Source of the DNA: a virus
Direction: 5' to 3' (one strand)
DNA length: 64,000 nucleotides
IMG/VR virus record: IMGVR_UViG_3300042922_000836
Location: 32,001-96,000 of that record
The translations under genes and the position numbers were made by a program. Shown here piece by piece: positions 18,526 to 53,729 of this stretch. Under the pieces are notes generated by a model. The model saw nothing but the letters and a program-made list of their open reading frames with translations. It was not told the origin of the DNA and made no database searches. Each line of letters opens with the position of its first letter. Within the stretch, counting starts at the first letter, position 1.

Positions 18526-20774
18526 TAATTGCATCGACTCCAGCCACAGTCTAAACAAGCAATACATCCGTTTTCATGTTTTATTTTACTTCCACATTCA
18601 GGACATTTGTTATCGTCTGATGCTACTTTTTTGATTACGGTTTGTTCTGTTTCAACTGACTTGACTTCAGTAACTTCAAGATTATCATTCACAAATTCTT
18701 TGATTGTTCTTGAGATTATATCTGCACATGATAACCCATCTATCTGATCTCCTTTTGTCTTTGCCTTGCCACAAGCTGGACAGTTTATACCACGCAACTG
18801 GTCTGCAATTTCATCAATTACAACACCTGACCGTAATGCCAATGAAATCATTCTGTTAACCGCACCAATATTGGCTTGACAAATTCCACCCTTGGATGTA
18901 TTTACAAAACTTTCTACTATATTACCTTTATCATCTTTATTTATTGTCAAATATAGAGTACCACAAGCACACTTTTTACAATATGTATTTCCATGTGTTG
19001 TACCAATTTCCTTGCGTGAAACAGGTGTGATTGAGTTATATTTTATACCTTTATCTTCTACCTTTTCTTCGGCTTTAGGTGTTGTAGATGTTGTTAAAAT
19101 ACCTAACCGTTTGCAACCATCTCTGAAAATTGTAATACCTTTTAAACCTTTTTCCCAAGCATAAAGATATAATTGTTCAACATCTTCTATGGGAGTTGCC
19201 ATAGGTAAATTTACTGTAGAGCTGATTGCTGTATCGACATGATTTTGCATAACAGCTTGTACATCAACTCTGTCTTTCCAATTAATATCTGCCGATGAAA
19301 TGAAATAATCAGGACAATCTTTATTACCTGTTACAGCTTGATATTCATTTACAGCTTTGCAATATACATCATAAAATTTTACTTCACCACCGTTTAAACT
19401 TTCGGTTTTACGAGTATATTTAATTGCATATTCAGGTTCGCATCCACCTGTAACACCGAGCATTGTACCAATTGAACCTGTAGGTGCAATTGAAATTAAA
19501 GAACAATTTCTTAAACCATTTTCTCTTAATTTATCAATTTCATCTTCTGTAAAATGTACTTTTATAATTGTACTATTAAATAAAACATCTTTGTATTTAG
19601 GGAAAGAACCCTTTTCTTTTGCTAATTTATTACTTGCAAGAATAGCAGTTACAAATAATGTATTGAATATTTCATCAGCGAATATCTTTGACTTGTCAGA
19701 ACCGTATTTAATACCAAGTTTCATAAGTGCTGTACCAAATCCCATTGTACCAAGTCCAATATTTCTATATTTAATTGAATTCTCACTCTGCTCTTTTAAT
19801 GCATGATTATTTTTATTTTCGTCTATGATTGTATCTAATGCTCTAACAGCAGTTGCGATTGCTTTCATAAACTCATAATTATCAAAGGAAGAATTTTGTG
19901 TATAAGGATCAATAATAAACTCTGCCAAATTCAATGAACCTAAATTACAACAGAAATCTTTCGGCAACGGTTGTTCCCCGCAAGGATTACTTGTAGCTAT
20001 TTCATATTCATTATCAAATTCCATCAGGTTATAATTTCTAAATCTGTTAGTAAACAAACAAGCGGGATCTCCCCAATCATAACAATTTTCTACTAACAAT
20101 TTATATAACTTAATCGGAATAATATCATATTCAACATCATGACCATTGTAATTTTTTACTTCATGTAAAACAACTTGTTCACCTGTTAAATAAAATTGTT
20201 GAACTGCTTTCATGAATTCATCATCAATTTCAAGAGAAAGATTTGCCTTACTTATCTTGCTATCTCCCGCCTTAATTTTGATAAATTCTTCTGCCTCTTT
20301 ATGTCTTATATCAAGTGAAACCATCAAAGCACCTTTGCGTGAACCACCCTGAGATATTACAGAAGTTGTCTGATTAAATAATTCAAGAAAAGGAATTATA
20401 CCATCACTTGAATACCTGTTACCTATCGGAGTTCCCTTTGGTCTTACCTTTGTTAATGATAAACCTTGTCCACCCTGTGACTTATATGTAAGAGCAAGAT
20501 TTGTGTTTAATTCCATTATTCCTGTAAGTTCATCAGGACAATAACCTGAACTATAGCAGTTAAACATACTACCTTTTGAATTTGTATTTCTATTCGATAA
20601 GGCTCTGCCACCAAAGAGAAATTTTCTATTTTTTATTAAGTTTTTTAAATCATTATCTCTCCCTGATACTCTATCGAGCCATTCATCGAAACTCTCATTA
20701 TTGTATCGATATTTCTTCTCCCAAATATCAATTCCTAAAAAATTATCTTTTCCTAACCATTCTTGTACTGTCAT
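18525..20774 (-). CDS. nrdJ: Class II (B12-dependent) ribonucleotide reductase with C-terminal TSCPD/Zn-ribbon domain
   Basis: FNCY, SNPCGEQPL, CNLGSLNL, IAPTG and KGITIFRDG motifs; no beta subunit nearby. Confidence 0.9.
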   Translation of the reverse strand: MTVQEWLGKDNFLGIDIWEKKYRYNNESFDEWLDRVSGRDNDLKNLIKNRKFLFGGRALSNRNTNSKGSMFNCYSSGYCPDELTGIMELNTNLALTYKSQGGQGLSLTKVRPKGTPIGNRYSSDGIIPFLELFNQTTSVISQGGSRKGALMVSLDIRHKEAEEFIKIKAGDSKISKANLSLEIDDEFMKAVQQFYLTGEQVVLHEVKNYNGHDVEYDIIPIKLYKLLVENCYDWGDPACLFTNRFRNYNLMEFDNEYEIATSNPCGEQPLPKDFCCNLGSLNLAEFIIDPYTQNSSFDNYEFMKAIATAVRALDTIIDENKNNHALKEQSENSIKYRNIGLGTMGFGTALMKLGIKYGSDKSKIFADEIFNTLFVTAILASNKLAKEKGSFPKYKDVLFNSTIIKVHFTEDEIDKLRENGLRNCSLISIAPTGSIGTMLGVTGGCEPEYAIKYTRKTESLNGGEVKFYDVYCKAVNEYQAVTGNKDCPDYFISSADINWKDRVDVQAVMQNHVDTAISSTVNLPMATPIEDVEQLYLYAWEKGLKGITIFRDGCKRLGILTTSTTPKAEEKVEDKGIKYNSITPVSRKEIGTTHGNTYCKKCACGTLYLTINKDDKGNIVESFVNTSKGGICQANIGAVNRMISLALRSGVVIDEIADQLRGINCPACGKAKTKGDQIDGLSCADIISRTIKEFVNDNLEVTEVKSVETEQTVIKKVASDDNKCPECGSKIKHENGCIACLDCGWSRCN

Positions 20775-20821
20775 TGTTTTCTCCTTTGTTTTGTTAATTT
20801 TTATTTTTTATGTCAACAATG

Positions 20822-21403
20822 CTACATTACTTTCAGCATTGTAAACTTGCAATTAAGACCTTTTTGCCATACCATGTGACAATATTCTATCGAGTCTGTG
20901 CTACCGTCTTCAGTAAAACTTATCCTTTTGTGATGAACATATATATACTTAGGTAAACATTCATTGAAGAAAGGAAACCTATCTTTACTGCCAAGAAAAT
21001 TTAAACGCAATAACATTATTACGAAACCATTGTCGGCTACATCATCCAAAGCTTTTTTAATAATTGGAAGTGCCAAATTAAAAGGCGGGTTTGTAATTAT
21101 GATATTAGGTTTTTCTTTTATCTCATATGTAAGGTAATCGGCTTTTGTTTCTGCTAAACTATCCTGTCTTATATCCAATGTTTTCATTGAAACATCATCA
21201 TATATTTTTTTAATAGCTGTTGGATAAGACATAGGATGTTTTGTATCACCACCCGCACAAGGATCTAAAATAAGTGGTTGATGTTTAAAAATAGATTCTG
21301 ATTTTTCAAACTCATTTAAAAAATTTTCTATTATATTCATCGGAGTTATATAATAATCAGCTATATGCTGATTTCTTGCGTTTGACCTATTTGTTGATGA
21401 TAT
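20822..21403 (-). CDS. DNA amino-methyltransferase (probable ATA start)
   Basis: LDPCAG and TNPPF motifs. The frame extends upstream to ATA-TCA-TCA-ACA (SSTNR...DYYITP) behind RBS GAAAGGAAG. Confidence 0.8.
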   Translation of the reverse strand: MSSTNRSNARNQHIADYYITPMNIIENFLNEFEKSESIFKHQPLILDPCAGGDTKHPMSYPTAIKKIYDDVSMKTLDIRQDSLAETKADYLTYEIKEKPNIIITNPPFNLALPIIKKALDDVADNGFVIMLLRLNFLGSKDRFPFFNECLPKYIYVHHKRISFTEDGSTDSIEYCHMVWQKGLNCKFTMLKVM

Positions 21404-21404
21404 A

Positions 21405-21773
21405 TTATTTACTTCCTTTCATTGACCAAAATGTAATCATATTTGCAAATGATTTAGTTGGTGTTTCTTCTACTTCATTAAAATTTATAATATACAAAGG
21501 TTTCTTATAAGCAAATGCCATACCTAAATCAAATAAAGAACCTTGGCTATTTTTATCCCAAAAGATATAAACTTCATCTGCGTTTTCAATAGCTTTTCTA
21601 TTATCTTCACAAATTCTGTAACCGATTAGATCAGTTTGATTTGTATCTTTATCAGGATAATAAACTTTATTTCCATGTTCTTCTAATAAAGATATGAAAG
21701 ATTTTATTGCATTTTTTTGTTCTTCCGTTGCGTTTCTAACAGGACAAATTATAAAGATATTTATTTTATTCAC
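21405..21773 (-). CDS. Nucleoside 2-deoxyribosyltransferase-like protein
   Basis: 'IFIICPV...YYP...AIENADEV...SQGSLFDLGMAFAYKKP'. Confidence 0.75.
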   Translation of the reverse strand: MNKINIFIICPVRNATEEQKNAIKSFISLLEEHGNKVYYPDKDTNQTDLIGYRICEDNRKAIENADEVYIFWDKNSQGSLFDLGMAFAYKKPLYIINFNEVEETPTKSFANMITFWSMKGSK

Positions 21774-21778
21774 CTCTT

Positions 21779-22006
21779 TTAATCATATGTTTTGTATGGT
21801 TCACTTTCCCACTCACACTTGCATTTTTCACACTTATAACAGTCAATCTGCATAAATCCTTTAATTAAATCAACCCATTGTTTACAGAACAGTGTAGGAT
21901 GTTTTAATGGTGTTCCACAATTAGGGCATTTATTACATCCTATATTTGCTATTTCTTTAACAATTTTAGCTTTATTTACTTGTTTTATCGATTTTGTTAT
22001 TTTCAA
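21779..22006 (-). CDS. Small zinc-ribbon protein (paralogue 1)
   Basis: CPNC...CEKCKCEWESEPY. Confidence 0.65.
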   Translation of the reverse strand: MKITKSIKQVNKAKIVKEIANIGCNKCPNCGTPLKHPTLFCKQWVDLIKGFMQIDCYKCEKCKCEWESEPYKTYD

Positions 22007-22020
22007 TTATTGCACCTCTT

Positions 22021-22254
22021 TCAATAATACGATTTATACGGTTTACTTTGCCATTCAGTATCACAATTTCTACAACTATAACAATCGATTTCCAAAAAAC
22101 CTCTAATAAATGAAAATACCGTTTTAGTATGCATGGGATATAAATAATTTTCATTTTTTGTATTACACTCAGGGCATTTATCACAGTATTCATTTGCTGT
22201 TTTTCTTTTTATTTTTAATAAAGTAATTTTTCTACCGCTTTTTGTTATTTTCAA
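22021..22254 (-). CDS. Small zinc-ribbon protein (paralogue 2)
   Basis: Same MKITKS start; CPEC...CRNCDTEWQSKPY. Confidence 0.65.
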   Translation of the reverse strand: MKITKSGRKITLLKIKRKTANEYCDKCPECNTKNENYLYPMHTKTVFSFIRGFLEIDCYSCRNCDTEWQSKPYKSYY

Positions 22255-22269
22255 ATATAATTTTCCTTT

Positions 22270-22824
22270 CTAATTGTAAGCTACTGTATATTTTTTCATT
22301 GACCAAATACAAGACTTATATTCAAATTGTTGCAACATTTGTACTCCATTTGAAGTAAAATAAAGTCTTATGAATTCACAAGATGGATCTAATAAGCTTT
22401 CAGCAATGATTATTTCTATCTCTTTATAATTAATTTTATAATCAATATCAGTCATATGGTGATAATTAAAACCATTACATCCATTAAAATATAATGCATT
22501 AAATTCATCAATAGCAACATCACACGTAAGAGTTATCTCACACATTGTTTTATAACTTATTAAATTCGGATTATGAGATTTATTTTCGTTATTATCATCA
22601 AATGCTTTAAAAATTTCAATATATTTATTTTCTATTTCAGCTTCATGTTTTTGGATATATTCATGAATTGGATCGTATGGAAAAGCTAACTTGTAAAGAT
22701 TTTCTTTGATTTCTTTATTTTTTTGTTTCCAGAACTTGTATAGCCTTTCACATTCATTCTTTATATCTGCAACTAAAGCACTCCTATTTATATCACTCAT
22801 ATTCTTGCACTCATCCATCCGCAT
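22270..22824 (-). CDS. Hypothetical protein
   Basis: ORF in a contiguous minus-strand operon. Confidence 0.5.
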   Translation of the reverse strand: MRMDECKNMSDINRSALVADIKNECERLYKFWKQKNKEIKENLYKLAFPYDPIHEYIQKHEAEIENKYIEIFKAFDDNNENKSHNPNLISYKTMCEITLTCDVAIDEFNALYFNGCNGFNYHHMTDIDYKINYKEIEIIIAESLLDPSCEFIRLYFTSNGVQMLQQFEYKSCIWSMKKYTVAYN

Positions 22825-23135
22825 TGTCTACAAACATAAGCACTAAAATATAGATCAAATTCAGCAATTCTTTCACACTCTGGACATGATATTAAATTTT
22901 CTCTTATTTTTTTAGTAGTTTGAAATCCGATTGTAGTTATTATTTTATTATCCCTATTGTTTGTCATTTTTTCTAAACGCAGAAAATTTTCAAATATAAA
23001 AACAGTTACATCATCAGGAGTTACATTAGTTACAACACCGACAACATTATCATTTAACATAAAAGGTTGATTTATATCATCGTTTGTCATTGCATATTCA
23101 TTTTTAATTTTGATAGTCATGATATATCCTTTCAA
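22797..23135 (-). CDS. Hypothetical protein with C-terminal zinc ribbon
   Basis: CPEC...CRQCGW. Confidence 0.5.
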   Translation of the reverse strand: MKGYIMTIKIKNEYAMTNDDINQPFMLNDNVVGVVTNVTPDDVTVFIFENFLRLEKMTNNRDNKIITTIGFQTTKKIRENLISCPECERIAEFDLYFSAYVCRQCGWMSARI

Positions 23136-23507
23136 TTATCTTCGTTGATTATTCCATTCTTCAACTTTATCAAATACACTAAGCCAATCAGCAACCAAAT
23201 GCCTGTGGCAAAAATCAGATGGTTTTTCATAACATAAAAGAACCACATCAAAACCACCAGACATTATCTTTAATTCTTTTAATACCGATTGTCTATCAAG
23301 AACATCCAATACTTCTTTATTAAAATGCTCTATGTAAAAATTGTTATCGTGATTTTTCTTCCATTCCATAAAGAAATCATATTTGGGAGCAAGTTTTTTA
23401 TATTGTAAACCTTTATAATTATCAGGTGTTTTACCACAGATGGAGATAGGCACAATATCAGATGGAATTGATTTAAGCTTTGCAAAGTAACTTGTATATA
23501 TTCTCAT
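23136..23507 (-). CDS. DUF488-family protein
   Basis: IYTSYF, LAP and 'LLCYEKPSDFCHRHLVA' motifs. Confidence 0.8.
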   Translation of the reverse strand: MRIYTSYFAKLKSIPSDIVPISICGKTPDNYKGLQYKKLAPKYDFFMEWKKNHDNNFYIEHFNKEVLDVLDRQSVLKELKIMSGGFDVVLLCYEKPSDFCHRHLVADWLSVFDKVEEWNNQRR

Positions 23508-23521
23508 AAATATTATTTAAC

Positions 23522-23749
23522 TCAATCAAAATGATTTTCGATTTTTAAAAATCGCAAACATTTAATATCAAGAGATATAAAGTTTATATTTGTGAATTTT
23601 GCTAAAGCATCACTTTTTATTGTTAAATCATATAATGTTTCAGAATATTTACATACATCTTTTTTAGCACAATTATCACATAATGTTGATCTCTTTGGTA
23701 ATTCAACTCCAGCTATTAGAGTTCCCCATGATTTAGTATCATTGTTCAT
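23522..23749 (-). CDS. Hypothetical Cys-containing protein
   Basis: RBS plus ATG; CDNC...C motif. Confidence 0.5.
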   Translation of the reverse strand: MNNDTKSWGTLIAGVELPKRSTLCDNCAKKDVCKYSETLYDLTIKSDALAKFTNINFISLDIKCLRFLKIENHFD

Positions 23750-23770
23750 TTATTCAACCTCTTTCTTCTA

Positions 23771-23977
23771 TTAATTTTTTTCATAAGCATGATAACCATT
23801 ACCCATATTCATGATTGATATTGGTATAGATGATTGTCCGTCTATTTTAATTCTGCAATAACTGAAATCAACTACACCATTCGTAGCTGATGCTGTTATT
23901 TCATTGCCAGTTTCATCGAGAAGTATTATGTTAATTTCCTGACCGTCTTGTAAATCGGTTATTTTAAGTTGTTTCAT
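23771..23977 (-). CDS. Hypothetical protein
   Basis: Coupled (ATGA) to the upstream small ORF. Confidence 0.5.
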   Translation of the reverse strand: MKQLKITDLQDGQEINIILLDETGNEITASATNGVVDFSYCRIKIDGQSSIPISIMNMGNGYHAYEKN

Positions 23978-24147
23978 AAACTAAATAAACGAAATAAATT
24001 AAAATTTAATAAAACAAAATTTAATAAAGCTAATAAAATCATAATTATAAAAAAATATTTTTTTTGTTTTATAAAACTTATTGCTCCTGAAATACTAAAA
24101 TATAAGCCTAATATATTACACCCTATTAAAATAATAATTAATATCAT
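23974..24147 (-). CDS. Small membrane protein (57 aa; not in the ORF track)
   Basis: AGGAGAG RBS; MILIIILIGCNILGLYFSISG...; two hydrophobic stretches. Confidence 0.5.
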   Translation of the reverse strand: MILIIILIGCNILGLYFSISGAISFIKQKKYFFIIMILLALLNFVLLNFNLFRLFSL

Positions 24148-24168
24148 TTTCTACTCTCCTTATCTTAA

Positions 24169-24236
24169 TTACATATAAAATCTTTATGATATTTTAATTC
24201 TGCTTGTTCTCTTACTTTAACAGCTTGTTCAATGTT
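24169..24236 (-). pseudogene. Remnant of an HNH-AP2 endonuclease C-terminus
   Basis: Reads NIEQAVKVREQAELKYHKDFYM*, resembling NIQDAIDVRKEAEIKYFGKY (26197 ORF) and DIQDAIEVRHNAEINLHKNF (31266 ORF). No start. Confidence 0.6.
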
Positions 24237-24294
24237 TTACCGACAATATTGAGTAGTTAAATATCCATAATTTTCATTTACAATTACAGCCATT

Positions 24295-25512
24295 TTATTC
24301 TTTTATCTCCACTAAATAGCTAATAGTCATTTGATTTTCCTTATAAACAACAATTTCATCATTTTTTAACATTGAACCAGCATGTGCATGTAGACAATTA
24401 GCACCTTGACAAGCTTTTTGTAATTGGTCATAGTCAAAATCATAGAATTTACTATCAAACGAATATACATCATATGGTTTTCCATAAGCTACATTCATTA
24501 AAGCCATAAAACCTATATTAGAATTACCGTTTACCCAATATGAACCTTTTAAAGATGTATAACCCATTGATTTTCTTGCTGTAGGACTGTAATAACAACC
24601 ATTCCCAAACATTTTTCCTGTAATTATTGCATTTGTTGGTCTGAGTACTAAGCCACTGTTAATGATACTCCACCAATTTTCATTCCTACTTCCATGCCAT
24701 AAAAGTTTCGTTTCAGGATTTCCAGCAGACTGAACATATTTATCAAATCTCATCTGAGTTTTATTATTTTCGACTCTCCATGCTTGAAAAAATTTATTTG
24801 AACAAGAACCTAACGCACTATTAATTTTCATTTTATCCAAGTCTGTTATGTCAGCAAATTTCAATCCCAAAGCATCCAAAATAGTTAATTGTTTTACTTC
24901 ATTATTATCTTCAGGTTCATTACTTTCAACTTGTTGCTGTACTACTTGCCCTTTCATTATATCAAGTAAATCCTGTTCTCTTTGGACTATATTAGAGAAA
25001 TTATCTCGATTATTTGCAAGGTAATCTGAAACTTTGCTCATTTTCCTTGGAATAATTTTAAACAAATCAATAAGAATTTTATTAAAAGATTCAGTAGTAT
25101 CAGTACTTATAAGATTGGTTAAAGTAATCTGAGCTTCATCAACCATTGCTTTTGTAACTTTCGCAGAAGAAATTGTATAATTTTCACTGATTGCTTGTTT
25201 TGCCATTGTTTGTAACCGTTCAACTATTTTTGCTATTGATGGATTTTCAATATCTATGTATTCTTTCTTTTTCTCTTTAACAATTAAATCTGCAACTAAA
25301 TGACTCTGGTCAACATATCCTTTTTTTATTTTTTCATTATACTTCAAATAAAATTGGCTTATCGGATAGGAAGAAGTTTGAAACCCTCCAACTCCAATTC
25401 TGCCATATTCAACAGTAAACGTATTACCATTGGGTATCATACGATAAAATTTATTATGATTATCATCACCTGTTACCATGACAAGGTAGACAGGATTTTT
25501 TACTTCTTCCAT
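24295..25512 (-). CDS. PARP-family ADP-ribosyltransferase (WGR + helical + catalytic domains)
   Basis: WGR: NKFY...YGRIG...KKGY. Catalytic: LWHGS, GKMFGNGCYY, KSMGY, NDEIVVY (H-Y-E triad). Confidence 0.9.
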   Translation of the reverse strand: MEEVKNPVYLVMVTGDDNHNKFYRMIPNGNTFTVEYGRIGVGGFQTSSYPISQFYLKYNEKIKKGYVDQSHLVADLIVKEKKKEYIDIENPSIAKIVERLQTMAKQAISENYTISSAKVTKAMVDEAQITLTNLISTDTTESFNKILIDLFKIIPRKMSKVSDYLANNRDNFSNIVQREQDLLDIMKGQVVQQQVESNEPEDNNEVKQLTILDALGLKFADITDLDKMKINSALGSCSNKFFQAWRVENNKTQMRFDKYVQSAGNPETKLLWHGSRNENWWSIINSGLVLRPTNAIITGKMFGNGCYYSPTARKSMGYTSLKGSYWVNGNSNIGFMALMNVAYGKPYDVYSFDSKFYDFDYDQLQKACQGANCLHAHAGSMLKNDEIVVYKENQMTISYLVEIKE

Positions 25513-25523
25513 TTATTTACCTC

Positions 25524-25943
25524 TTACATATAACAAACAAGAATTTCTATATTTGTATCTGCAAACATTTCTTGAATTATATCTTTAACCTTATCCCAAT
25601 CAAGTCCATCAAGACCACAACCAATCCTTGGCATTGCAAGTTTTTCTATTTCAAGTCCGATTACAGCATCATGCAATTCAGATAAAGCCTCAATCAAACT
25701 ATCGTATGTAGGTTTCTGAAAATATTTATCTTTTGTAACAAGGTTAAATACATTATCAACAAGGATTACGCAATTATAATTTATACTGCCATACTTCTTA
25801 ACTAATTTTTCTCTCATGTTGTAAAGGAGATCAAACTGCTTTGCAACTCCAGCTCCTAACGCAAAATCTCCTGATATACAATGAGCAAAATAATATCCAT
25901 GCTCAACTCCAAATAAATTTCTATTTTCTTCTCTAAATGTCAT
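25524..25943 (-). CDS. Macrodomain protein (Poa1p/TARG1/DarG-like)
   Basis: AHCIS.D..LGAGVA, NLVTK and MPRIGCGLDGLDW motifs. Confidence 0.9.
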   Translation of the reverse strand: MTFREENRNLFGVEHGYYFAHCISGDFALGAGVAKQFDLLYNMREKLVKKYGSINYNCVILVDNVFNLVTKDKYFQKPTYDSLIEALSELHDAVIGLEIEKLAMPRIGCGLDGLDWDKVKDIIQEMFADTNIEILVCYM

Positions 25944-25983
25944 TTTTTAATTTCCTTTCTTTTCTTGTTTTATAATTTTATAC

Positions 25984-26181
25984 TTATTTTTGTTTGTCAC
26001 TTCTACTTGCCAATATGTGATATTTAATTTTTACACAATTGTGAGGATTACCTTTACAAATTTTTGCATCTTCACCTTGTTCACAAAGTAAATGTCCATT
26101 ATAATCATCACAATAATTACACCATGAACCATATTTGTTTTGTTTTTTATCTGGATTATGCCTTGGTTTACCTTTACCCAT
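25984..26181 (-). CDS. Small Cys-rich hypothetical protein
   Basis: RBS plus ATG; 65 aa. Confidence 0.5.
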   Translation of the reverse strand: MGKGKPRHNPDKKQNKYGSWCNYCDDYNGHLLCEQGEDAKICKGNPHNCVKIKYHILASRSDKQK

Positions 26182-26196
26182 ATTTATTAATCCTTA

Positions 26197-26913
26197 TTAA
26201 TTCATGCTTATTTCTGTTTTATCTATTCGTCTGTATTTGCCAAAATATTTTATTTCTGCCTCTTTCCTAACATCTATAGCATCTTGTATATTTTCAAAAA
26301 TACCTAAATATATTTTTTGCTTATTATAATTAATTTCTACTTGCCATTTATTAAGTTTTTTACAATAAGATACACCTGTACAACCGCTTGAGTTATTTTT
26401 ATATTTATTATGATTATAATTATTTTGTTGAATCTCAACAATTCTTAATTCACTTTTCCTATTATCATAATTAATTCCGAAAATATGGTCTACTATAAAT
26501 TTTGGTTTATTTATTATATCCATTAATAAACGATGCATTTTTATTATTTTATGTGATTTAATATCTTTTGAATTAAGATATTTATTTTTATCATATGACC
26601 AACAATAATTTTTAATTTTATCATAATCATTTAAGTCAAAATAAAATGGTTCTCCTTTTGATGTATATCCTATTCCGTATTCACCAGATAAATCATATGT
26701 ATTGTACTTTTTCATAACTTCTTTATGGTAACACCCACATGATTGAACATTTCCACTGATTAAAACACTTGAACTAACTGTAATTATATTTCCACAATTA
26801 CATTTACATTTCCATAAAACATAACCATATTTATTTCTTCCAAATTCTTCAAACACTTTTAATCTACCATATTGTTTTCCTAATAAATTTTTATATTTTG
26901 GTATAATCAACAC
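26197..26913 (-). CDS. HNH-AP2 homing endonuclease
   Basis: WKCKCNCG...SCGC, MHRLLM...DHI...DNRKSELR, AP2 'GCTGVSY...WQVEI...YLG.F'. Confidence 0.85.
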   Translation of the reverse strand: MLIIPKYKNLLGKQYGRLKVFEEFGRNKYGYVLWKCKCNCGNIITVSSSVLISGNVQSCGCYHKEVMKKYNTYDLSGEYGIGYTSKGEPFYFDLNDYDKIKNYCWSYDKNKYLNSKDIKSHKIIKMHRLLMDIINKPKFIVDHIFGINYDNRKSELRIVEIQQNNYNHNKYKNNSSGCTGVSYCKKLNKWQVEINYNKQKIYLGIFENIQDAIDVRKEAEIKYFGKYRRIDKTEISMN

Positions 26914-26916
26914 CCC

Positions 26917-28230
26917 TTAATAGTAACTAACTTCTTTATCAATATCTCTTAATTCTTCAAATACAGGAAATCTTAATGATTTAATACCATTTTTATCTTC
27001 TGTTTCTTCAAAATATTGAACCGTTATTACTCTATCAAGTAATTCACTTTGATGTTCCCAAAAATATTTTCTATCATTATCACTAAAACCACTTCCAACA
27101 CCTACAATAGAATTTTTATATTCAACATTTATTCTACCAAGTGTTCCAGATAATCTTCCTGAACCCTCTTCAAACCCAACAATTTTTAAATCACACGTTT
27201 GCATTACTTTGCATTTTAATAGCTTGTCCGTTCTCTTGAATTGATAGGTTGCATCATTGATATTAATCATAATTCCCTCTTGATTATCAGCTTTGGCTAA
27301 ATCATGCAGTTCTTTTATTTTCGATGTATCATAGCCACAATAAAGTACAGGCAATATTTCAACATATTTCATGATTATATCATTGCTCAATCTTTCCAAC
27401 CATCGTCTGCGTTGCGAATAAGTATTGAAACCTCTTCGGCTTGTAAATTCAGCCAAATCCAAAATATCAAAGGTTAATAATTTAATACCATGTTTTTCTC
27501 CGTCTTTACGTGTAATTTTTTCTGTTTGTTTATATTGCTCTTTGGATGGAATTCCTTTACCATCAAGAAGTGTTAATTCACCGTCAAGAACAAAATTATC
27601 TGCTGGAATATTCAATATTTCATTTTCAATGTCAATTAATCCCTCAATCAATTGTCCTTCTCGACTATAAAATAAAACTTCATCATTCTTTTTTACAGCA
27701 AGGCAACGTTGACCGTCAATTTTAAGTGTTATCGAAAATGCTTTCCCCTCAACCTTTTCAGGTTTTTCAAAATATTTATCTGCCAGCATACATTCAAAAG
27801 ACGGAATAAAATCTTTACTCCATACCTTATTTGCTGTTTTATCGGAAATACCAAGTTTCAATGATTTAGTCAAAATACTTTTTATAAATTTTTGCATTTC
27901 ATTGTCGAAATTGGTGAAATACATTTCACAAACCGATATATCAATATCTCTACCTGTATTATTTTTCTTGATGTAATTAAGCAAATTAATCAATCCTTTT
28001 ACTGGATCATCTCCAAGGCTTATTAATTCCTTATAATTGACATTCGGAATGATACCGACATTCTTATTGATTTTCTTTTTTGATAAGCCAGAAACTATGT
28101 AAGGATTAAGCAGAAAGTATATTATTTCTATAAGAGAAAGATTTTCCTGTTCTCTTCTTAAAATTGTTTCTTTTTCTTTTACACTATTTGTTGCCTGTAA
28201 TTCATCACAGATTGCTTTTATTTTATTCAT
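26917..28230 (-). CDS. ATP-dependent DNA ligase
   Basis: KIDGQR, LDGEL, FDIL, EGIM, LLKCK, VGSGF and SLRFPVF motifs. Confidence 0.93.
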   Translation of the reverse strand: MNKIKAICDELQATNSVKEKETILRREQENLSLIEIIYFLLNPYIVSGLSKKKINKNVGIIPNVNYKELISLGDDPVKGLINLLNYIKKNNTGRDIDISVCEMYFTNFDNEMQKFIKSILTKSLKLGISDKTANKVWSKDFIPSFECMLADKYFEKPEKVEGKAFSITLKIDGQRCLAVKKNDEVLFYSREGQLIEGLIDIENEILNIPADNFVLDGELTLLDGKGIPSKEQYKQTEKITRKDGEKHGIKLLTFDILDLAEFTSRRGFNTYSQRRRWLERLSNDIIMKYVEILPVLYCGYDTSKIKELHDLAKADNQEGIMININDATYQFKRTDKLLKCKVMQTCDLKIVGFEEGSGRLSGTLGRINVEYKNSIVGVGSGFSDNDRKYFWEHQSELLDRVITVQYFEETEDKNGIKSLRFPVFEELRDIDKEVSYY

Positions 28231-28700
28231 ATTACTTCTCCATTAAATGCAACTCCTAAGAATTCAACTAAATCATCTCTAAATTCATTACCAGAATAAT
28301 CATTTTTACCAAAAGTACCTTTTATTAACCTATTTTCTAACTCTGGTAAAAGCACTTCTTCAGGACACCATTGATCTTCAAGTCCGTAACATGAACAATG
28401 AGAACCGTTTACTTCATACAATTTACCATTCTGTTCAAACAAAACGAAAGCATCTCCTGACCAATTATCAGTTCCATATGTTGCAAATAAAATATTAACA
28501 TCCTTATATTTTTCAAGAGCCTTTGTCATTTCATTCTTTTTTGCTTGAAAATATTCTTCATTATGATATGGTGATTTTTCCATTTTATATTCTTCGCTTG
28601 TTATATAAATGTTTTCAAAATTAGCGATAACATCCATTTTTTCAGTCCAATTATGTAAATAAACAGGGGTTTGACTCAATAAATCTTTTATATCTTTCAC
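28227..28700 (-). CDS. Conserved phage hypothetical protein
   Basis: 'WSGDAFVLF...LYEVNGSHCSCYGLEDQW'; coupled to the ligase. Confidence 0.6.
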   Translation of the reverse strand: MKDIKDLLSQTPVYLHNWTEKMDVIANFENIYITSEEYKMEKSPYHNEEYFQAKKNEMTKALEKYKDVNILFATYGTDNWSGDAFVLFEQNGKLYEVNGSHCSCYGLEDQWCPEEVLLPELENRLIKGTFGKNDYSGNEFRDDLVEFLGVAFNGEVI

Positions 28701-28742
28701 TTTCTATGTCCTTTCAGTTTATTTATATTAGTTTCCAATACT

Positions 28743-29243
28743 TTACCTGTCAAAGATGCCCTCATTAAAATTTAAATACCCCTCATTTCTTAACTTTTTT
28801 CTGATGTTCATCAAACATTTACCTAAGTTATTTTCACCAACACCGTCACAAACACCCCAAAATGTATCATTCCAATCATTGGTTTCTTCCAAATATTTAT
28901 CACCAGTCGAAAGCAATAATTCTTTTAAGTGCTGATTTTGTGAAAATTTAGAATATAGAATTTTTTCTATTGTCGCAACTTTTATTTTATCCCAATCTTC
29001 TCTTAAAGGGCATAATCTGCCAAGTCTTTTTGACTCTGCGGGAGTTTCTGCATTTAATATTTTCTCTTGCCAACCTTTATCAAGTGTTTTATGATAATGA
29101 AAAGCATGTTCACTCGATTTAAACACTATTGCATTTTCATCATGACTTAATGTAAAAGGTGTTGTATCAAAATTACTCAATGGTCTATATTTGCCGAAGA
29201 ATCCATAAATTGCTTTATCTGTTTCTTTTGATTGTATTAACAT
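28743..29243 (-). CDS. NADAR-family hydrolase
   Basis: LSNF, SSEHAF, KFSQN, LLSTG, 'EETN...DTFWG...GENNLGKCLM' motifs. Confidence 0.9.
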   Translation of the reverse strand: MLIQSKETDKAIYGFFGKYRPLSNFDTTPFTLSHDENAIVFKSSEHAFHYHKTLDKGWQEKILNAETPAESKRLGRLCPLREDWDKIKVATIEKILYSKFSQNQHLKELLLSTGDKYLEETNDWNDTFWGVCDGVGENNLGKCLMNIRKKLRNEGYLNFNEGIFDR

Positions 29244-29244
29244 T

Positions 29245-29565
29245 TTATTTTCCTTTCTTATTTCCAAATTTAAAATCTACTATGAGAACAGCTTTTGAAA
29301 TAGCTTCAGGTTTAAATACATCATCTGCTTCTTTTGTTTCTGTCCAATCTGATAACATAACTGCATCCCTATATCTTAATGCTCTTCCGTCAATCAGTTT
29401 ATAACCAAAGAAAAAATGAGGATCATATTCTGTTATTTGAAAATTTCTTATATATTTTTTGTCACCTGATTTAAAAACTTTTAAATACCAATTGCCATCT
29501 TCATTTGCTTTTAAAATCAAATTTTCATTTTCGGTTAATACTTTGATAGCCTCCCAAGTATTCAT
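29245..29565 (-). CDS. Hypothetical protein
   Basis: RBS plus ATG within the operon. Confidence 0.5.
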   Translation of the reverse strand: MNTWEAIKVLTENENLILKANEDGNWYLKVFKSGDKKYIRNFQITEYDPHFFFGYKLIDGRALRYRDAVMLSDWTETKEADDVFKPEAISKAVLIVDFKFGNKKGK

Positions 29566-29582
29566 TTCATTAATTTCCTTTC

Positions 29583-30500
29583 TTATCTTGCCATTTCATC
29601 TGCTTTATGTAATAACATGAGGTTATTATAAAATCCTTCACCCCAAAGTTTTTTATACATTTCGGACTGACTTTTCTTTTCCCAAAAATGAGGTTGCATG
29701 TGCCATTGTATATAATTAGATCGTTTCAATTCATTACCTAAACCTTGACTGTAAAATAGACTATCATAAGCAGAAACCAAATGATGTTGATAATAATGTG
29801 CTACATCTGTTATTTCATCTTTACTATTTTTGAAACTCTTTGTAAAAGGTTTACCAATATCATGCATAAGTGCTGACTCAAACAATTCTATTGGTGCATC
29901 ACCTTTATACATTTCCTCTAAATGTATACTACATTGATAACAATGTTGACCGATTGTTAATGTATGATGGGGATTATCATGACTTATTTTATTCAAACCA
30001 TTTTTTCCGTTGAATAAATCTCCTAAATTATATTCATTCTCTTTAAAATTCCAACAGATTTCGATTTTATCCCAACCCTCATAATATTGAGGAACGAAAA
30101 AATTTAAATACATTTTTTTAATTACATATTCAGGAATGTTCCGTTCTCTATTTGCATTTTGATATAAGCAATCTTTATAAGGTGTTGCCATAAACAGACA
30201 TATCTTTTTACAATCAATATCTTTAATTTCATCTAAGAAAGCCATTCGCTTTTTATAATCAATATTGGTTGCATCATAGATTGTATTTTTACCCGCATAC
30301 AAATCAGCTTTAATTCTCTTATGTAATAACTCAAATACTTCCTTGTTTACATCCTGACAATTAATATCCGAGGTTAATTCTTCTCTGATTTTATCGGAAG
30401 AATGAATATTCGCATTATTTGCTTTACTTATAATATCTGCCTGATATGATTTACCACTTGCGGGTAAACCGACCATCATATAAAAATTTGTCATAACCAC
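29583..30500 (-). CDS. Polynucleotide kinase-like (AAA_33) plus HD-domain protein
   Basis: GLPASGKS, SSDKIR, DATN; 'NPHH...H...HDIGK...HH...H...D'. Confidence 0.85.
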   Translation of the reverse strand: MVMTNFYMMVGLPASGKSYQADIISKANNANIHSSDKIREELTSDINCQDVNKEVFELLHKRIKADLYAGKNTIYDATNIDYKKRMAFLDEIKDIDCKKICLFMATPYKDCLYQNANRERNIPEYVIKKMYLNFFVPQYYEGWDKIEICWNFKENEYNLGDLFNGKNGLNKISHDNPHHTLTIGQHCYQCSIHLEEMYKGDAPIELFESALMHDIGKPFTKSFKNSKDEITDVAHYYQHHLVSAYDSLFYSQGLGNELKRSNYIQWHMQPHFWEKKSQSEMYKKLWGEGFYNNLMLLHKADEMAR

Positions 30501-31285
30501 ACATCCATTTCTGTTTGAAAATTATACTTCATAACATTTAAAAGAACATTATCCATAATTTCTTCGCACTTCGTATTGATTAAAGGCTTATTGTTATGTA
30601 TATAATCATTTTTTATATCAAGAGTTTCATTTGTTAATTTATTTGCTAATTCTCTTGCTTTTTCTAAGTCTAAACAACCTTTCTTTACATCAATTATAAA
30701 ATCTCGTTGATTAGAGATTAAACAACTATGATATGGTTCTCCACTCAAATATCGTTTTATGAATTCATTGAGCCTTATAATTGTGGATAATTGTTTTGGA
30801 TCATATCCGTATTTTTCGATTTTACTAATAATGCTTGGATACGGATGTTCAAGAGCCTTACGTTTTTCCATACATGCACCGCTTATACAATTAACAGATG
30901 CATAATTGTTATATCTTCCAATTAATTCATTGTTGTCAAGCATTGGTTTAAACAACGATTCATATTTTGGATTAAGGATTTTGTATTTAGTAAATAGGAT
31001 TTCAACAAAATTAATGTTTTGTTTTCTAAAACATTCAAACATAAGTCGTATATCCTTAATGTCAACATGTTCTTCGTTTTCCATTATGTGTGTATAACTA
31101 ACCATTTTATTGCCGAGAACAAAATCTTCAAACTTTGGAAGGACAATTACTTTAGTGTCAATATCACTTCCCTCATATTCCAAATTGTAATTTTGACTCC
31201 CCTGAAGGAAGATACCAATAGTTTCATATCCCATATCGAGAACCGCTTGATAATGCTCTTTTAATCTATTTATTACATTGTCCAT
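30491..31285 (-). CDS. Pol-beta-superfamily nucleotidyltransferase
   Basis: GSQNYNL...SDIDT motif. Confidence 0.8.
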   Translation of the reverse strand: MDNVINRLKEHYQAVLDMGYETIGIFLQGSQNYNLEYEGSDIDTKVIVLPKFEDFVLGNKMVSYTHIMENEEHVDIKDIRLMFECFRKQNINFVEILFTKYKILNPKYESLFKPMLDNNELIGRYNNYASVNCISGACMEKRKALEHPYPSIISKIEKYGYDPKQLSTIIRLNEFIKRYLSGEPYHSCLISNQRDFIIDVKKGCLDLEKARELANKLTNETLDIKNDYIHNNKPLINTKCEEIMDNVLLNVMKYNFQTEMDVWL

Positions 31286-32030
31286 TATTATTGCCCCCTT
31301 TTATTAACCATTTAATATAATCTTGCCTATTTATTTCACCAGAAAAATTTTTATGTAAATTTATTTCTGCATTGTGCCTTACCTCAATAGCATCCTGTAT
31401 ATCATCGAATGTTCCTAAATAATATCTTATATTATTAAAAGATATTTGAGATTGCCATTTACCATTTTTAGTAGGCTTTATTCCTGTATACCCGCTTGAA
31501 TTATTGGATTTGCGTTTTATATTAACATTATTTTCACTTAGTGTTGCAATTCTAAGATTAGATTTAATATTTAAAGTTCTATCCCAATTTATATGGTCTA
31601 TTAATTCATCTTCTTTTGCATCCATAATTAATCTGTGTATTCTAATTGTTTTATTTTTACCCTGTCTTTTATTTGAAACTACATAACCTTCTCTATCTAA
31701 TCTCCAACAATAATTTTTGACTTTTTCATAATCATTAATGTCAATATAAAATTTTTGATTTTTGGTTGTAAACCCTACAGCTATATCATTTTCAAAATAC
31801 CATTTATTTGTTTTGAAATTTTTAGTTTGTTTTTGTTTTTCTTTTGCATAACAACCGCAAGAAGATGTATTTCCATTTTTTAAATTGTTCCCAGTAACCG
31901 ATATAATTTTCGGATTACCACAATCACAAATACAAAACCAATGAATGTTTTTACATGTTTTATCAAAATCTCTACCTAAGACTGCTAATTTTCCATATTT
32001 ATTGCCTGTTAAATCTATTACTTTTTTCAT
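31266..32030 (-). CDS. HNH-AP2 homing endonuclease
   Basis: WFCICDCG...SCGC, IHRLIM...DHIN...NLR, AP2 domain. Confidence 0.85.
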   Translation of the reverse strand: MKKVIDLTGNKYGKLAVLGRDFDKTCKNIHWFCICDCGNPKIISVTGNNLKNGNTSSCGCYAKEKQKQTKNFKTNKWYFENDIAVGFTTKNQKFYIDINDYEKVKNYCWRLDREGYVVSNKRQGKNKTIRIHRLIMDAKEDELIDHINWDRTLNIKSNLRIATLSENNVNIKRKSNNSSGYTGIKPTKNGKWQSQISFNNIRYYLGTFDDIQDAIEVRHNAEINLHKNFSGEINRQDYIKWLIKGGNNNGQCNK

Positions 32031-33328
32031 TATTTTTCTTCAACTTCTATTACTTCCTGTGCCTCTTCCATGTCAGGTTCTATGGCATCAACCTTTATAA
32101 TAGATTCAAGTACCTTGAAATTAAAATTCTTATGTTTAAAAGCAGAGAATTTAGCTTTATTATCAATTCTGACAACAATACCTTCACGAATATGAGTTTT
32201 ACCGACAGAATCAGCACCGTCATAATATGTATGTACTCTTTGCATTAAATCTTCATTTGTAGTATAAATAAACTTGTCTAATTGAGGTACATGATTTATA
32301 CACATCTGTTCACATCTCAGCTTAACTAATTCCCAAGGATACTCAACTACATAACCGTCTTCATTGGTCATTGTCATGCGATATACATAAACATTGTTTT
32401 CACCCTCTTGGCAACCATATGTAAACTTTGTTATATCACCATATTGTTTTATGAATTCTTTATCACAGGTTTTTTTATTACTGCACTCAGGCATTATAAA
32501 TCGACTACCCTCTGTATAACCGACAATTTCATAGTAAACTGTTTCACCTTTTTGCAACTTGTCCACAAAGAAGTCATGCCATTTTCTTCTGAAATTGTTA
32601 TCACCATAATAACCGTTAGCATAACTTTGAAGTACCATTTTTCTTGTGCCACTTATGTATTTCCAAGACTTTACAAGCTTATTTTTTATTTTTAAAAGTT
32701 TTTGAATGAGATTTTGCTTTTTCTGAAATTCTTCCAGACTATATGAGGTTCTACCGCTTGTACCATGCATTTTTAAAGTTATGTAACATGTATCACCAGT
32801 TTTGAATTGATGTAAATTATATGCTAACTGTGATGTGTCAACATGTTCTTCAAAAAGAGGAAAAGAAATTCTATCTACATTTTTAGGCTTAACTTTATTA
32901 CTTGTGACTTTGTTGGCTGTTTTTTTAACAGGAATATATTTTTCACAAATAACTATGCCATTAAGAACGGTAATTTTATCTCCCTCTTTAAGAGCTTCAA
33001 TATCACAAAATTTATCTAAGCTTGTCAGTGGCATAAATAAACCATCAGATTTTTCACCACGAAGTTTTAGGCTTGTTATATTTCTTCTTTCAGGATCAAG
33101 ATATCCACCACAACTGTTGCCATTTTCATCTTTTTTTCTTAACAGATTATTTTGTGTTGCATATTCTATACCGATTTTACCGTCTGTCGGAAAATAAACA
33201 CCTAATTCATTTTCAAATGTTCTCAAATCGACTATAACGAAGTTACCGAAACATTCACCTACTTGAAGTCTGTCTGCATTTGAGTGTTTTCTAAGATTTT
33301 TTATTCTTGTTATATAAGCCTCATACAT
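32030..33328 (-). CDS. RNA ligase (Rnl2-like, N-terminal OB-like domain)
   Basis: HSNADRL, LRGEKSDG, KMHGTS, YEIVG, REGIVVR and FKHKN motifs. Confidence 0.8.
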   Translation of the reverse strand: MYEAYITRIKNLRKHSNADRLQVGECFGNFVIVDLRTFENELGVYFPTDGKIGIEYATQNNLLRKKDENGNSCGGYLDPERRNITSLKLRGEKSDGLFMPLTSLDKFCDIEALKEGDKITVLNGIVICEKYIPVKKTANKVTSNKVKPKNVDRISFPLFEEHVDTSQLAYNLHQFKTGDTCYITLKMHGTSGRTSYSLEEFQKKQNLIQKLLKIKNKLVKSWKYISGTRKMVLQSYANGYYGDNNFRRKWHDFFVDKLQKGETVYYEIVGYTEGSRFIMPECSNKKTCDKEFIKQYGDITKFTYGCQEGENNVYVYRMTMTNEDGYVVEYPWELVKLRCEQMCINHVPQLDKFIYTTNEDLMQRVHTYYDGADSVGKTHIREGIVVRIDNKAKFSAFKHKNFNFKVLESIIKVDAIEPDMEEAQEVIEVEEK

Positions 33329-33346
33329 TTAATCATCTCCCCTTTA

Positions 33347-34406: not shown

Positions 34407-34407
34407 A

Positions 34408-53420: not shown

Positions 53421-53427
53421 TTTATTA

Positions 53428-53724
53428 TTACCTTCCTCTAAAAGAGTGCATCATATTCATTGTACTTATAGCACCAGCGGTACTAATATTATTTAATGTA
53501 TTAATTGTATGAAGTGTATGCAAATGATTCGTTCTGTTGTTACAATTTGAAATATATTCATTTCGTATTTGTTGTCTTTGACACCTTTTATATTTTTTAA
53601 AATTCTTCTTTTTACAATTTCCGCATTTTATACTTTCATATATTAATTCATATATTAATAAGAAAACAAAGAAGATAAAAAGTATAACCAAAAAAACAAG
53701 TAAACCTGTCAAGAAAATATCCAT
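53428..53724 (-). CDS. Membrane-anchored hypothetical protein
   Basis: N-terminal TM helix. Confidence 0.45.
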   Translation of the reverse strand: MDIFLTGLLVFLVILFIFFVFLLIYELIYESIKCGNCKKKNFKKYKRCQRQQIRNEYISNCNNRTNHLHTLHTINTLNNISTAGAISTMNMMHSFRGR

Positions 53725-53729
53725 TTAAT

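Follow-up and report, generated by a model that had tools for sequence, protein, structure and literature searches.

A candidate ADP-ribosylation writer/eraser pair, a TARG1-type macrodomain and a WGR-PARP, in a large phage and its relatives

Introduction

PARPs outside the eukaryotes have been known for more than a decade and, to our knowledge, no biological role has been assigned to them. The present analysis deals with one such enzyme, encoded directly behind a macrodomain gene in a stretch of 64,000 nucleotides (the window), which covers bases 32001-96000 of the IMG/VR virus record IMGVR_UViG_3300042922_000836, a record of 137,094 bp with direct terminal repeats. The element is a phage, as seen from the record type, the terminal repeats and the genes for tail proteins, DNA polymerase III alpha (PolIII-alpha), a helicase and an integrase, and it is best read as a large siphovirus-type phage with a low-G+C Gram-positive bacterial host. 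The macrodomain and the PARP are taken here as a co-transcribed, probably translationally coupled ADP-ribosylation writer/eraser pair within a block of replication/repair and nucleotide-metabolism genes, a reading whose chances of being right or wrong we hold to be about equal. In the direction of transcription, which all gene lists below follow, the pair consists of:

25524-25943, minus strand: TARG1/OARD1-type macrodomain, 139 amino acids (aa)
25513-25523, minus strand: junction from the macrodomain stop codon (TAA) to the PARP ATG, 11 bp with GAGGT, sequence read directly
24295-25512, minus strand: PARP, 405 aa

Compact prokaryotic enzymes with WGR, (helical) and catalytic domains, the layout shared by the window PARP, have been characterized in vitro. 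In the portions of text available from the two reports, HaPARP of Herpetosiphon aurantiacus needs DNA and makes poly(ADP-ribose) (PAR), and CdPARP of Clostridioides difficile CD160 makes PAR (PMC8120803, PMC5966428). PARG is discussed there as the eraser of these bacterial enzymes, whereas the phage has no PARG and the fixed partner of its PARP is a TARG1-type macrodomain.

Phage PARPs are a catalogued family, of which the window PARP is a further member. In the available parts of their papers, Perina et al. (2014; PMC4245714) described PARPs in four double-stranded DNA viruses including two phages, and TARG1-like proteins in many viruses, while Iyer et al. (2021; PMC7824862) reported PARPs from a few jumbo phages and suggested that they modify host proteins. 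The accessible text of Iyer et al. (2022; PMC9503650) states that, toxin-antitoxin systems aside, direct evidence of phage Macro domains acting on macromolecular adducts is lacking. The PARPs of Cellulophaga phage phi4:1, Aeromonas phage Aeh1, Xanthomonas phage XacN1 and Klebsiella phage FBKp34 are full-length homologues of the window PARP (23-29% identity) that bear the PARP annotation in their records, but none of the three inspected has an adjacent macrodomain, and the window clade is a separate, much larger group from uncultured phages of Gram-positive bacteria. The literature text covered held no description of a conserved phage operon of macrodomain and PARP, and the figures or supplements of PMC9503650, PMC7824862 and PMC4245714 may show such neighbourhoods. 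Within that text, no description was found of this variant of the PARP/eraser theme, in which a TARG1-type eraser is the fixed partner in a very large Gram-positive phage clade.

Human PARP2, PARP3 and the PARP1 core share with the window PARP the order of WGR, helical and ADP-ribosyltransferase (ART) domains, the H-Y-E catalytic set, the Gly, Ser and Tyr of the nicotinamide pocket and the WGR arginine, and the phage model superposes on break-bound PARP1 WGR-CAT and on PARP2/HPF1. In contrast to the human enzymes, to which it is about 16-20% identical in structural alignments, the phage protein reads YGR for WGR, has no N-terminal tail, zinc fingers or BRCT domain and leaves the Pfam model PARP_reg silent. 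We know of no HPF1-like partner for a phage PARP. The macrodomain is similar to human TARG1/OARD1 over its full length and has the aligned Lys ('TK') and Asp ('GLD'), but it is encoded in an operon with the presumed writer, and 27 of 60 clade members lack the Asp. The DarTG system also sets an ART and a TARG1-like macrodomain side by side and carries out DNA-connected reversible ADP-ribosylation, as is predicted for the phage pair. In the phage, however, the writer is a WGR-PARP and not DarT, the macrodomain lacks the toxin-binding C-terminal domain, the eraser comes first and the pair lies among replication genes.

The PARP protein

The window PARP comprises a WGR domain (residues ~8-70), a helical regulatory domain (~91-197) and an ART catalytic domain (~215-404). 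Pfam detects the PARP catalytic domain at 83.3 bits (cut-off 26.7) and WGR at 31.3 bits (cut-off 22), the PARP_reg model gives no match on this protein, and in PHROGs it falls in phrog_23333 (2.7e-58). In a phmmer search against the PDB, residues 72-349 align to the helical and catalytic domains of PARP1 (8.4e-12), with residues 117-250 matching the helical domain region and 'fkiipr' standing opposite 'ytliph' of PARP1; a second short stretch places 'NDEIVVY' on 'NEYIVY' of PARP1.

The H-Y-E set, which we take to be H862, Y896 and E988 in human PARP1, is present as the H of WHGS, the Y of GCYY and the E of NDEIVVY. Across 59 aligned homologues of 37-68% identity, H273, G274, Y307, K314, Y318 and E386 are invariant, and G37, R38 and the helical-domain leucines L147, L150 and L183 are conserved in at least 90%. 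The WGR motif reads YGR, R38 being the Arg of its 'GR', and R38, H273, G274, Y307, K314, S315, Y318 and E386 are each kept in 101 of 102 clade PARPs.

Using AlphaFold2, a model was obtained with a predicted local distance difference test (pLDDT) score of 92.1 and a predicted template modelling (pTM) score of 0.88, in which a WGR sheet plus helix (8-63, pLDDT >90), a helical bundle (91-197) and an ART fold are seen. The top Foldseek matches in the PDB are PARP1 WGR-CAT on a double-strand break (8g0h_D, 1.9e-21; 4dqy_C, template modelling score 0.69), together with PARP2/HPF1 bridging a break (6x0l_P, 1.0e-20), and the alignments span the chains from the WGR through the helical to the ART domain. 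An earlier note on this stretch had described a 405-aa WGR-helical-catalytic PARP with a helical segment 'LFKIIPR', which falls inside the PARP1 alignment, and an intact H-Y-E set, and had proposed an AlphaFold comparison; Pfam, phmmer, the 59-sequence alignment and AlphaFold2/Foldseek agree on that description, and the comparison returned break-bound PARP1 and PARP2/HPF1 as its best matches. With its H-Y-E ART domain, N-terminal WGR and helical domain, the protein would by architecture be a PARP of the clade-1-like, DNA-dependent type. The term 'eukaryote-like' that had been given to it is fair for the fold, but the family is very large in phages and bacteria, with 3986 proteins at E <= 1e-10 and 648 clusters at E <= 1e-30. 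Many of these proteins are encoded on contigs of 100-200 kb.

The macrodomain and its coupling to the PARP

The macrodomain matches human TARG1/OARD1 along its whole length in a phmmer search of the PDB (1.1e-18; residues 10-136 against 15-143 of 146), and less well the DarG macrodomains (1.2e-4 and 3.9e-3) and ADP-ribose 1''-phosphate phosphatase (0.01-0.05). The class predicted for the gene 11 bp upstream of the PARP, TARG1/DarG, was therefore correct, with TARG1 the closer of the two. The Pfam Macro model scores 19.7 bits, under its cut-off of 22. Lys71 (VTK) and Asp112 (GLD) align with the 'TK' and 'GLD' residues of TARG1, presumably its catalytic K84 and D125; among 60 distinct PARP-linked macrodomains, Lys71 is kept in 56 and Asp112 in 33. 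PARG, ARH and Nudix genes are absent from the phage record, in which this is the only macrodomain.

The GAGGT in the 11-bp gap is a ribosome-binding site, a layout that probably allows the translation of the two genes to be coupled. Prediction of a macrodomain-PARP complex gave a score of 0.45, the best of three controls reaching 0.00; the runs share at least 86% of their contacts and the partner has a pLDDT of at least 90. Of 80 solved complexes, 58 pass the mark applied, as do 2 of 110 mismatched pairs; at scores of 0.60 or below this is true of only 7 of the 80 and of both passing mismatches. These counts hold only roughly here, as the prediction used its own alignments. The model weakly supports binding of the two proteins.

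A two-gene operon with the eraser first and tightly spaced or overlapping frames could also be a toxin-antitoxin-like or abortive-infection system, with the PARP as a break-triggered toxin (through NAD+ drain or mass ADP-ribosylation) and the macrodomain as its antitoxin, by which a prophage would exclude superinfecting phages or stabilise itself. The weak binding prediction just given is consistent with this, as are the serine integrase of the phage, the relatives that sit in isolate genomes, and the resemblance of the macrodomain to the macro part of DarG (PADLOC DarG, 5.1e-14). That match is confined to the macro part of the DarG models: only residues 64-136 match, to positions 70-145 of profiles 329-338 long, and the NCBIfam DarG model gives 46.4 bits against a cut-off of 250. 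A DarG antitoxin proper was rejected, since 139 aa are too short to include the DarT-binding C-terminal domain, which makes up the other half of DarG, and the neighbour is a PARP and not DarT. Moreover, the PARP matches no PADLOC defence model, the pair lies inside a same-strand replication/nucleotide block and not in a moron-like position, some intact PARPs have no macrodomain next to them, and this integrase is matched in only 8 of 40 large PARP-bearing relatives, in just one of them strongly, other integrase types not having been searched. We consider a toxin-antitoxin role improbable.

Conservation of the pair in viral relatives

Linkage was examined in 81 sources, namely the window and 80 IMG/VR loci from a pattern scan whose PARPs are 53-64% identical to that of the window. 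All open reading frames (ORFs) of these sources were translated and searched with iterated hidden Markov models seeded by the window proteins, and a macrodomain ORF was found in 77. In 69 of the 81 (window included) it lies directly upstream of the PARP at a distance of -16 to +13 bp, in 6 it is upstream with an insert of 792-873 bp, and in 1 (L005) it is downstream; 4 have no macrodomain and 1 (L082) has no complete PARP frame. The earlier note had let its writer/eraser module stand or fall with such linkage in related phages; with 69 adjacent cases and 6 more split by an insert, the linkage is strongly conserved and speaks for the module. Among the four sources without a macrodomain, one contig begins 85 bases before the PARP (L057), one holds only 746 bases upstream (L048), one has tandem PARP paralogues (L068) and one carries an NAD-ligase fragment upstream (L083). 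The adjoining macrodomains of L007 and L081 are of a divergent, more canonical type.

Several features of individual loci were also noted. The tandem paralogues (L068:6071-9209, on a 290-kb viral contig) are 33% and 58% identical to the window PARP and have between them a 185-aa gene with no Pfam match. An ORF of 122-297 aa sits exactly between macrodomain and PARP in L046, L047 (two ORFs), L049, L059, L066, L078 and L082; the single insert checked, that of L059, is a GIY-YIG/NUMOD homing endonuclease. HNH endonucleases follow the PARP immediately in several other loci. A small gene directly downstream of the PARP, with a shared conserved C-terminal domain of about 95 residues and no convincing Pfam match (borderline Aegerolysin at 22.2 bits in L086, no Pfam match in L005 and L083), was seen in the subclade to which the window belongs, for the most part in loci lacking the upstream macrodomain; the window itself does not have it. 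Its positions are:

L005:9223-9696, L007:9252-9554, L018:5759-6061, L048:1989-2297, L083:2498-3079
L086:9219-9689, L100:9209-9517, L102:9242-9910, L104:9211-9516

Gene neighbourhood and PARP tree

The genes transcribed ahead of the pair include the ligase and NADAR frames, both of which exist on the minus strand where the earlier note had placed them:

28743-29267, minus strand: NADAR, YbiA-type, 174 aa from TTG, or 166 aa from the ATG at 29243
28227-28700, minus strand: 157-aa protein (phrog_21421, 1.1e-54)
26917-28230, minus strand: ATP-dependent DNA ligase, 437 aa
26197-26913, minus strand: HNH homing endonuclease (phrog_374), between ligase and macrodomain
25984-26181, minus strand: 65-aa Cys-rich ORF, following the HNH gene and preceding the macrodomain

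By its matches to Pfam DNA_ligase_A_M (60.1 bits) and OB_2 (44.7 bits), both over the cut-offs, and to phrog_114 (4.9e-83), the ligase is a standard phage ATP-dependent DNA ligase. In six relatives (L007, L018, L032, L033, L055, L056) the ligase abuts the macrodomain without the HNH insert of the window.

For a wider view, five genes on each side of the PARP were clustered in 79 indexed loci. The usual order on one strand is PD-(D/E)XK nuclease, PolIII-alpha, ERCC4 nuclease, NAD-dependent ligase, macrodomain and PARP; behind the PARP come ThyX, guanylate kinase (Gmk), NrdD or a gene resembling 3'-phosphoadenosine 5'-phosphosulfate (PAPS) reductase. A ligase stands within four genes upstream in 31 of the 79 loci (23 NAD-dependent, 8 ATP-dependent) and none in the other 48. 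A quick maximum-likelihood tree of the PARPs was built from 102 rows: 78 of the 80 viral loci (L076 and L082 left out), the window and the 23 closest loci from genomes. The tree has three subclades. PARPs with an NAD-ligase neighbour form a single clade of 22 rows, with a support of 95 in the Shimodaira-Hasegawa-like approximate likelihood ratio test (SH-aLRT); the subclade of the window usually has an ATP-ligase neighbour; the third subclade holds 44 rows, 43 of them without a ligase nearby and one (L087) with an ATP-ligase. The macrodomain is present in all three subclades, in 87 of 102 rows, with at least 7 changes.

This setting bears on a further explanation, in which the phage PARP would take over the host by modifying its transcription, translation, repair or defence proteins, in the manner of T4's Alt, ModA and ModB, while the macrodomain limits collateral modification of phage proteins. 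In the parts of the two papers available, phage PARPs are proposed to act like the T4 ARTs but adding chains (PMC7824862), and PART/PARP is placed with the commonest of the viral ART families acting on macromolecules (PMC9503650). However, its WGR and autoinhibitory helical domains suggest an enzyme that is switched on by breaks and does not target constitutively, and the PARP lies among replication genes and not among the head/packaging genes where, in the same available text, many injected ARTs lie (PMC9503650). Host take-over is thus regarded as unlikely.

PARP loci in bacterial genomes and cultured phages

A survey with one genome per species gave close relatives (45-66% PARP identity) in Clostridia, Tissierellia and Paenibacillus genomes and metagenome-assembled genomes (MAGs), isolates included. 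The pair occurs in genomes and MAGs labelled as Clostridia (Ruminococcus, Lacrimispora, Lachnospiraceae and others), and other labels appear among the MAGs. In the 23 close genome loci (L086-L108) the macrodomain is adjacent in 12 and split off by an insert in 1. Another 57 loci (L109-L165) are more distant and come mostly from Bacteroidota (Cytophagales, Saprospiraceae). In these distant loci a 99-aa gene with no Pfam match lies near the PARP in 30 and directly behind it in 24 (for example L134:9291-9590), an ADP-ribosylglycohydrolase adjoins the PARP in 4 and a CCA-adding enzyme in 5. Separate PARP lineages keep separate companions, which fits a writer that needs a partner of unfixed identity.

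Among cultured phages, a PARP was found in 16 of 50,697 records. In Cellulophaga phage phi4:1, whose PARP is 29% identical to that of the window, the order is CCA-adding enzyme, PARP, one gene of no known function and ATP-ligase, which gives an independent hint of the ligase link. The gene of about 155 aa that follows the PARP (phi4:1 gp030, FBKp34 gp112) was considered as a hidden macrodomain and also as a relative of the 157-aa gene of the window; neither BLASTP nor hhalign found any similarity in either case, and both candidates were dropped.

NADAR, NAMPT and NAD+ supply

The NADAR is well recognised by Pfam (107.8 bits, cut-off 35.1) and by similarity to the E. coli YbiA structure (2.5e-18), and it also passes TIGR02464, the riboflavin-intermediate N-glycosidase model, at 87 bits against 73.7. 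The first ATG of its frame is at 29243, where the region of the earlier note ended, and a TTG opens the frame at 29267. The other gene needed here lies far from the pair:

51094-52818, minus strand: NAMPT (nicotinamide phosphoribosyltransferase), 574 aa

Within 8 kb of the PARP a NADAR was found in 1 of the 81 sources, the window itself. Of 40 large PARP-bearing records 5 contain one, and in 4 of these 5 (G011, G013, G015 and G016, behind loci L025, L030, L039 and L040) directly behind NAMPT, starting 32-35 bases after it. Because of this spacing the NADAR of the relatives is assigned, by gene order, to NAD+ salvage and not to the PARP. It follows that the arrangement of two erasers clustered with a PARP is peculiar to this genome, and the proposal that the NADAR forms part of the module was not upheld. 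The open frame that holds the NADAR is about 400 aa long in three of the four records. NAMPT was found in 15 of the 40 large records; among those with a completeness of at least 90%, 7 of 16 have it. It might recycle the nicotinamide released by the PARP, although it is distant from the pair in the window. The salvage block at 51094-54521 (minus strand) consists of NAMPT, a 200-aa HAD-like protein and a protein resembling phosphoribosyl pyrophosphate synthetase. Relatives match the window NAMPT at 6-322 and 414-572 as two abutting pieces, from which the window protein seems to hold an extra segment of about 94 residues.

The erasers could serve counter-defence without the PARP: the macrodomain, here together with the NADAR, would strip ADP-ribose placed on phage DNA by a host ART such as DarT, or destroy ADP-ribose-derived immune signals, and the adjacency of the PARP would be historical. 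TARG1-type macrodomains are common in phages without a PARP (201 records with the macrodomain vs 16 with a PARP), and in the available text of PMC11125620 all four NADAR subtypes tested take ADP-ribose off guanine in vitro, and protection of phage DNA is proposed as the role of the NADARs of phages. The same text reports, on the other side, that YbiA and the T4 NADAR (gp30.3) gave cells no protection against DarT1 (PMC11125620), and the window NADAR is the one that passes the riboflavin-intermediate model mentioned above. Nor does counter-defence explain why the two genes stay adjacent, -16 to +13 bp apart, in three subclades whose flanks change. It is judged distinctly unlikely.

A proposed role at DNA breaks

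The writer/eraser reading holds that the two proteins work together on DNA breaks. Joint working is suggested by the invariant PARP active site, the conserved macrodomain Lys and the fixed eraser-then-writer order with a ribosome-binding site in the 11-bp gap, and further by the way the pair stays together while its flanks change and homing endonucleases are inserted in some loci and not in others. The WGR and helical domains and the polymerase, nuclease and ligase neighbours favour a role at DNA breaks in phage replication/repair. The enzymatic activity of the pair, its targets and the choice between mono- and poly-ADP-ribosylation are predictions from sequence.

In the proposed mechanism, the WGR domain would bind nicks or ends, be they in damaged host DNA or in phage DNA (replicating, recombining or packaged-end), as suggested by its fold and the practically invariant Arg38. 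Binding would unfold the autoinhibitory helical domain, a step expected from the conserved core leucines and from human and bacterial homologues. The H-Y-E domain would then move ADP-ribose from NAD+ onto itself and nearby proteins, probably at acidic residues, and possibly also onto the 5'-phosphates of the break, as one unit or a chain. The TARG1-type macrodomain, translated first from the same message, would strip the ADP-ribose, reset the sensor and keep the mark transient, a step predicted from its TARG1-type Lys and Asp; its substrates would be whole chains released from Glu/Asp, or phosphate-linked mono-ADP-ribose. The phage ligase, often encoded just upstream, would seal the break. In the available text of PMC8385414, PARP3 mono-ADP-ribosylates 5'-phosphates at breaks, TARG1 reverses this, and such ends are suggested as ligase substrates, which makes the ligase-macrodomain-PARP trio chemically plausible and goes no further.

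A more specific version, in which the PARP ADP-ribosylates the 5'-phosphates of the phage's own nicks or ends as a removable cap and the macrodomain decaps them, is given a low probability. The ends concerned could be replication intermediates or the termini of the terminal-repeat record, and the cap would shield them from host nucleases or hand them to the adjacent ligase.

Several observations weigh against the break-responsive pair. Intact PARPs have no adjacent macrodomain in 15 of the 102 tree rows, some of them at contig edges, nor do any of the 57 distant bacterial loci (37-46% PARP identity) have an adjacent TARG1-type macrodomain. Among cultured phages, the PARPs of Cellulophaga phi4:1 and XacN1 have no macrodomain nearby, and in Klebsiella FBKp34 a relative of it lies 2.4 kb upstream and not adjacent (hhalign 96%). 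An eraser beside the writer is thus not strictly required. Conversely, the 201 phage records with a TARG1-type macrodomain, against 16 with a PARP, indicate that the macrodomain has uses that do not involve a PARP, and in 25 of the 60 linked macrodomains Asn or Gly stands where TARG1 has its Asp.

The ligase link, which by gene order is real, represents few independent events, because the NAD-ligase neighbours form one clade on the PARP tree, and in 47 tree rows no ligase is near the PARP; a block of replication genes held in common could be all that lies behind the link. The inclusion of a DNA ligase in the cluster accordingly stands for the window and for the 31 loci counted above, while as a repeated association it shrinks mostly to descent in two subclades. 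Finally, a search of sequencing runs found the phage in one DNA run only, a soil metagenome from which the record was probably derived, and in no RNA run. A promoter/terminator scan of 20500-34500 gave 106 hits, not above the 95.5 +/- 9.2 of shuffled sequences; it marks no operon boundaries, so the case for co-transcription comes from gene spacing alone.

Other genes of the window

The window has a G+C content of about 28%, with tail genes on the plus strand at 1-14.5 kb (PHROG matches) and one long minus-strand gene array from about 14.9 kb to the window end. Elsewhere in the window, PHROG matches point to NAMPT, a DnaB-like helicase and a DNA polymerase of the PolIII-alpha type, which shares about 40% identity with its counterparts in Geobacillus virus E3 and in the Tsamsa group of large Bacillus siphoviruses; a megablast search with 22000-32000 of the window found no DNA-level relatives in cultured phages. 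The remaining genes around the pair are:

32030-33328, minus strand: RNA ligase (phrog_968)
31266-32030, minus strand: HNH endonuclease, inserted in the RNA-repair set
30491-31285, minus strand: nucleotidyltransferase (phrog_388)
29583-30500, minus strand: polynucleotide kinase plus HD (AAA_33 kinase plus HD, Pnkp-like)
29245-29565, minus strand: 106-aa ORF
24148-24294, minus strand: non-coding spacer 3' of the PARP
Between the PARP and the DUF488 gene: small ORFs
23136-23507, minus strand: DUF488 protein (DUF488-N3a)
21405-21773, minus strand: nucleoside 2-deoxyribosyltransferase-like protein
20822-21340, minus strand: methyltransferase-like protein (weak Dam match, below cut-off)
18525-20774, minus strand: 749-aa protein that reads like ribonucleotide reductase
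14981-16501: large serine integrase (PHROG match)

An RNA-repair-like set (29583-33328, minus strand) thus stands immediately upstream of the NADAR-ligase-macrodomain-PARP stretch. With its polynucleotide kinase, nucleotidyltransferase and RNA ligase 4-8 kb upstream of the PARP, it raises the idea that the PARP caps or marks RNA or DNA ends together with this toolkit and that the macrodomain clears ADP-ribose by-products. A CCA-adding enzyme is encoded beside the PARP in 5 loci from Bacteroidota as well as in Cellulophaga phage phi4:1, and TARG1 takes ADP-ribose off RNA ends in vitro according to the available text of PMC8385414. Such genes are, however, near the PARP in few of the 81 sources, window included (polynucleotide kinase-HD in 5, RNA ligase in 2, nucleotidyltransferase in 1), and WGR-PARPs are known as sensors of DNA breaks, so that a role in RNA repair is very improbable.

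Smaller features of the region were recorded as well. The 157-aa gene overlaps the ligase start by 4 bases; its phrog_21421 label, 'integrase', is doubtful given the size of the protein, which has no Pfam, NCBIfam or PADLOC match. The 65-aa Cys-rich ORF has no family match and a relative in one other locus (2 of 81 sources including the window). At 21779-22254 (minus strand) lie two adjoining paralogous ORFs of 75-77 aa, each starting MKITKS and carrying CxxC...CxxC pairs (zinc-ribbon-like). In the spacer at 24148-24294 one frame with an in-frame stop resembles, by eye, the C-terminal end of the two HNH/AP2 endonucleases of the window, and relatives carry an HNH gene at this position directly after the PARP; a tblastn search of the two HNH proteins against 24141-24300 gave no significant match to such a remnant.

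Implications

As read here, the phage clade would be a minimal self-contained system of one predicted break sensor/writer and one predicted eraser, often with one ligase, and relatives of it are integrated in cultivable Clostridia and Paenibacillus. Such a system bears on what a PARP does without chromatin, HPF1 or PARG, on whether ADP-ribosylation of DNA ends is physiological, and on why the partner is of the TARG1 type and not PARG. The size of the PARP family, with its 3986 proteins and 648 clusters, bears on the origin of the eukaryotic PARPs. If the capping of phage DNA ends were true, this would be the first natural system to give PARP-type ADP-ribosylation of DNA ends, so far an in vitro reaction in the literature text available, a physiological job, and it would offer a bacterial and phage setting for the genetic study of DNA-end ADP-ribosylation.

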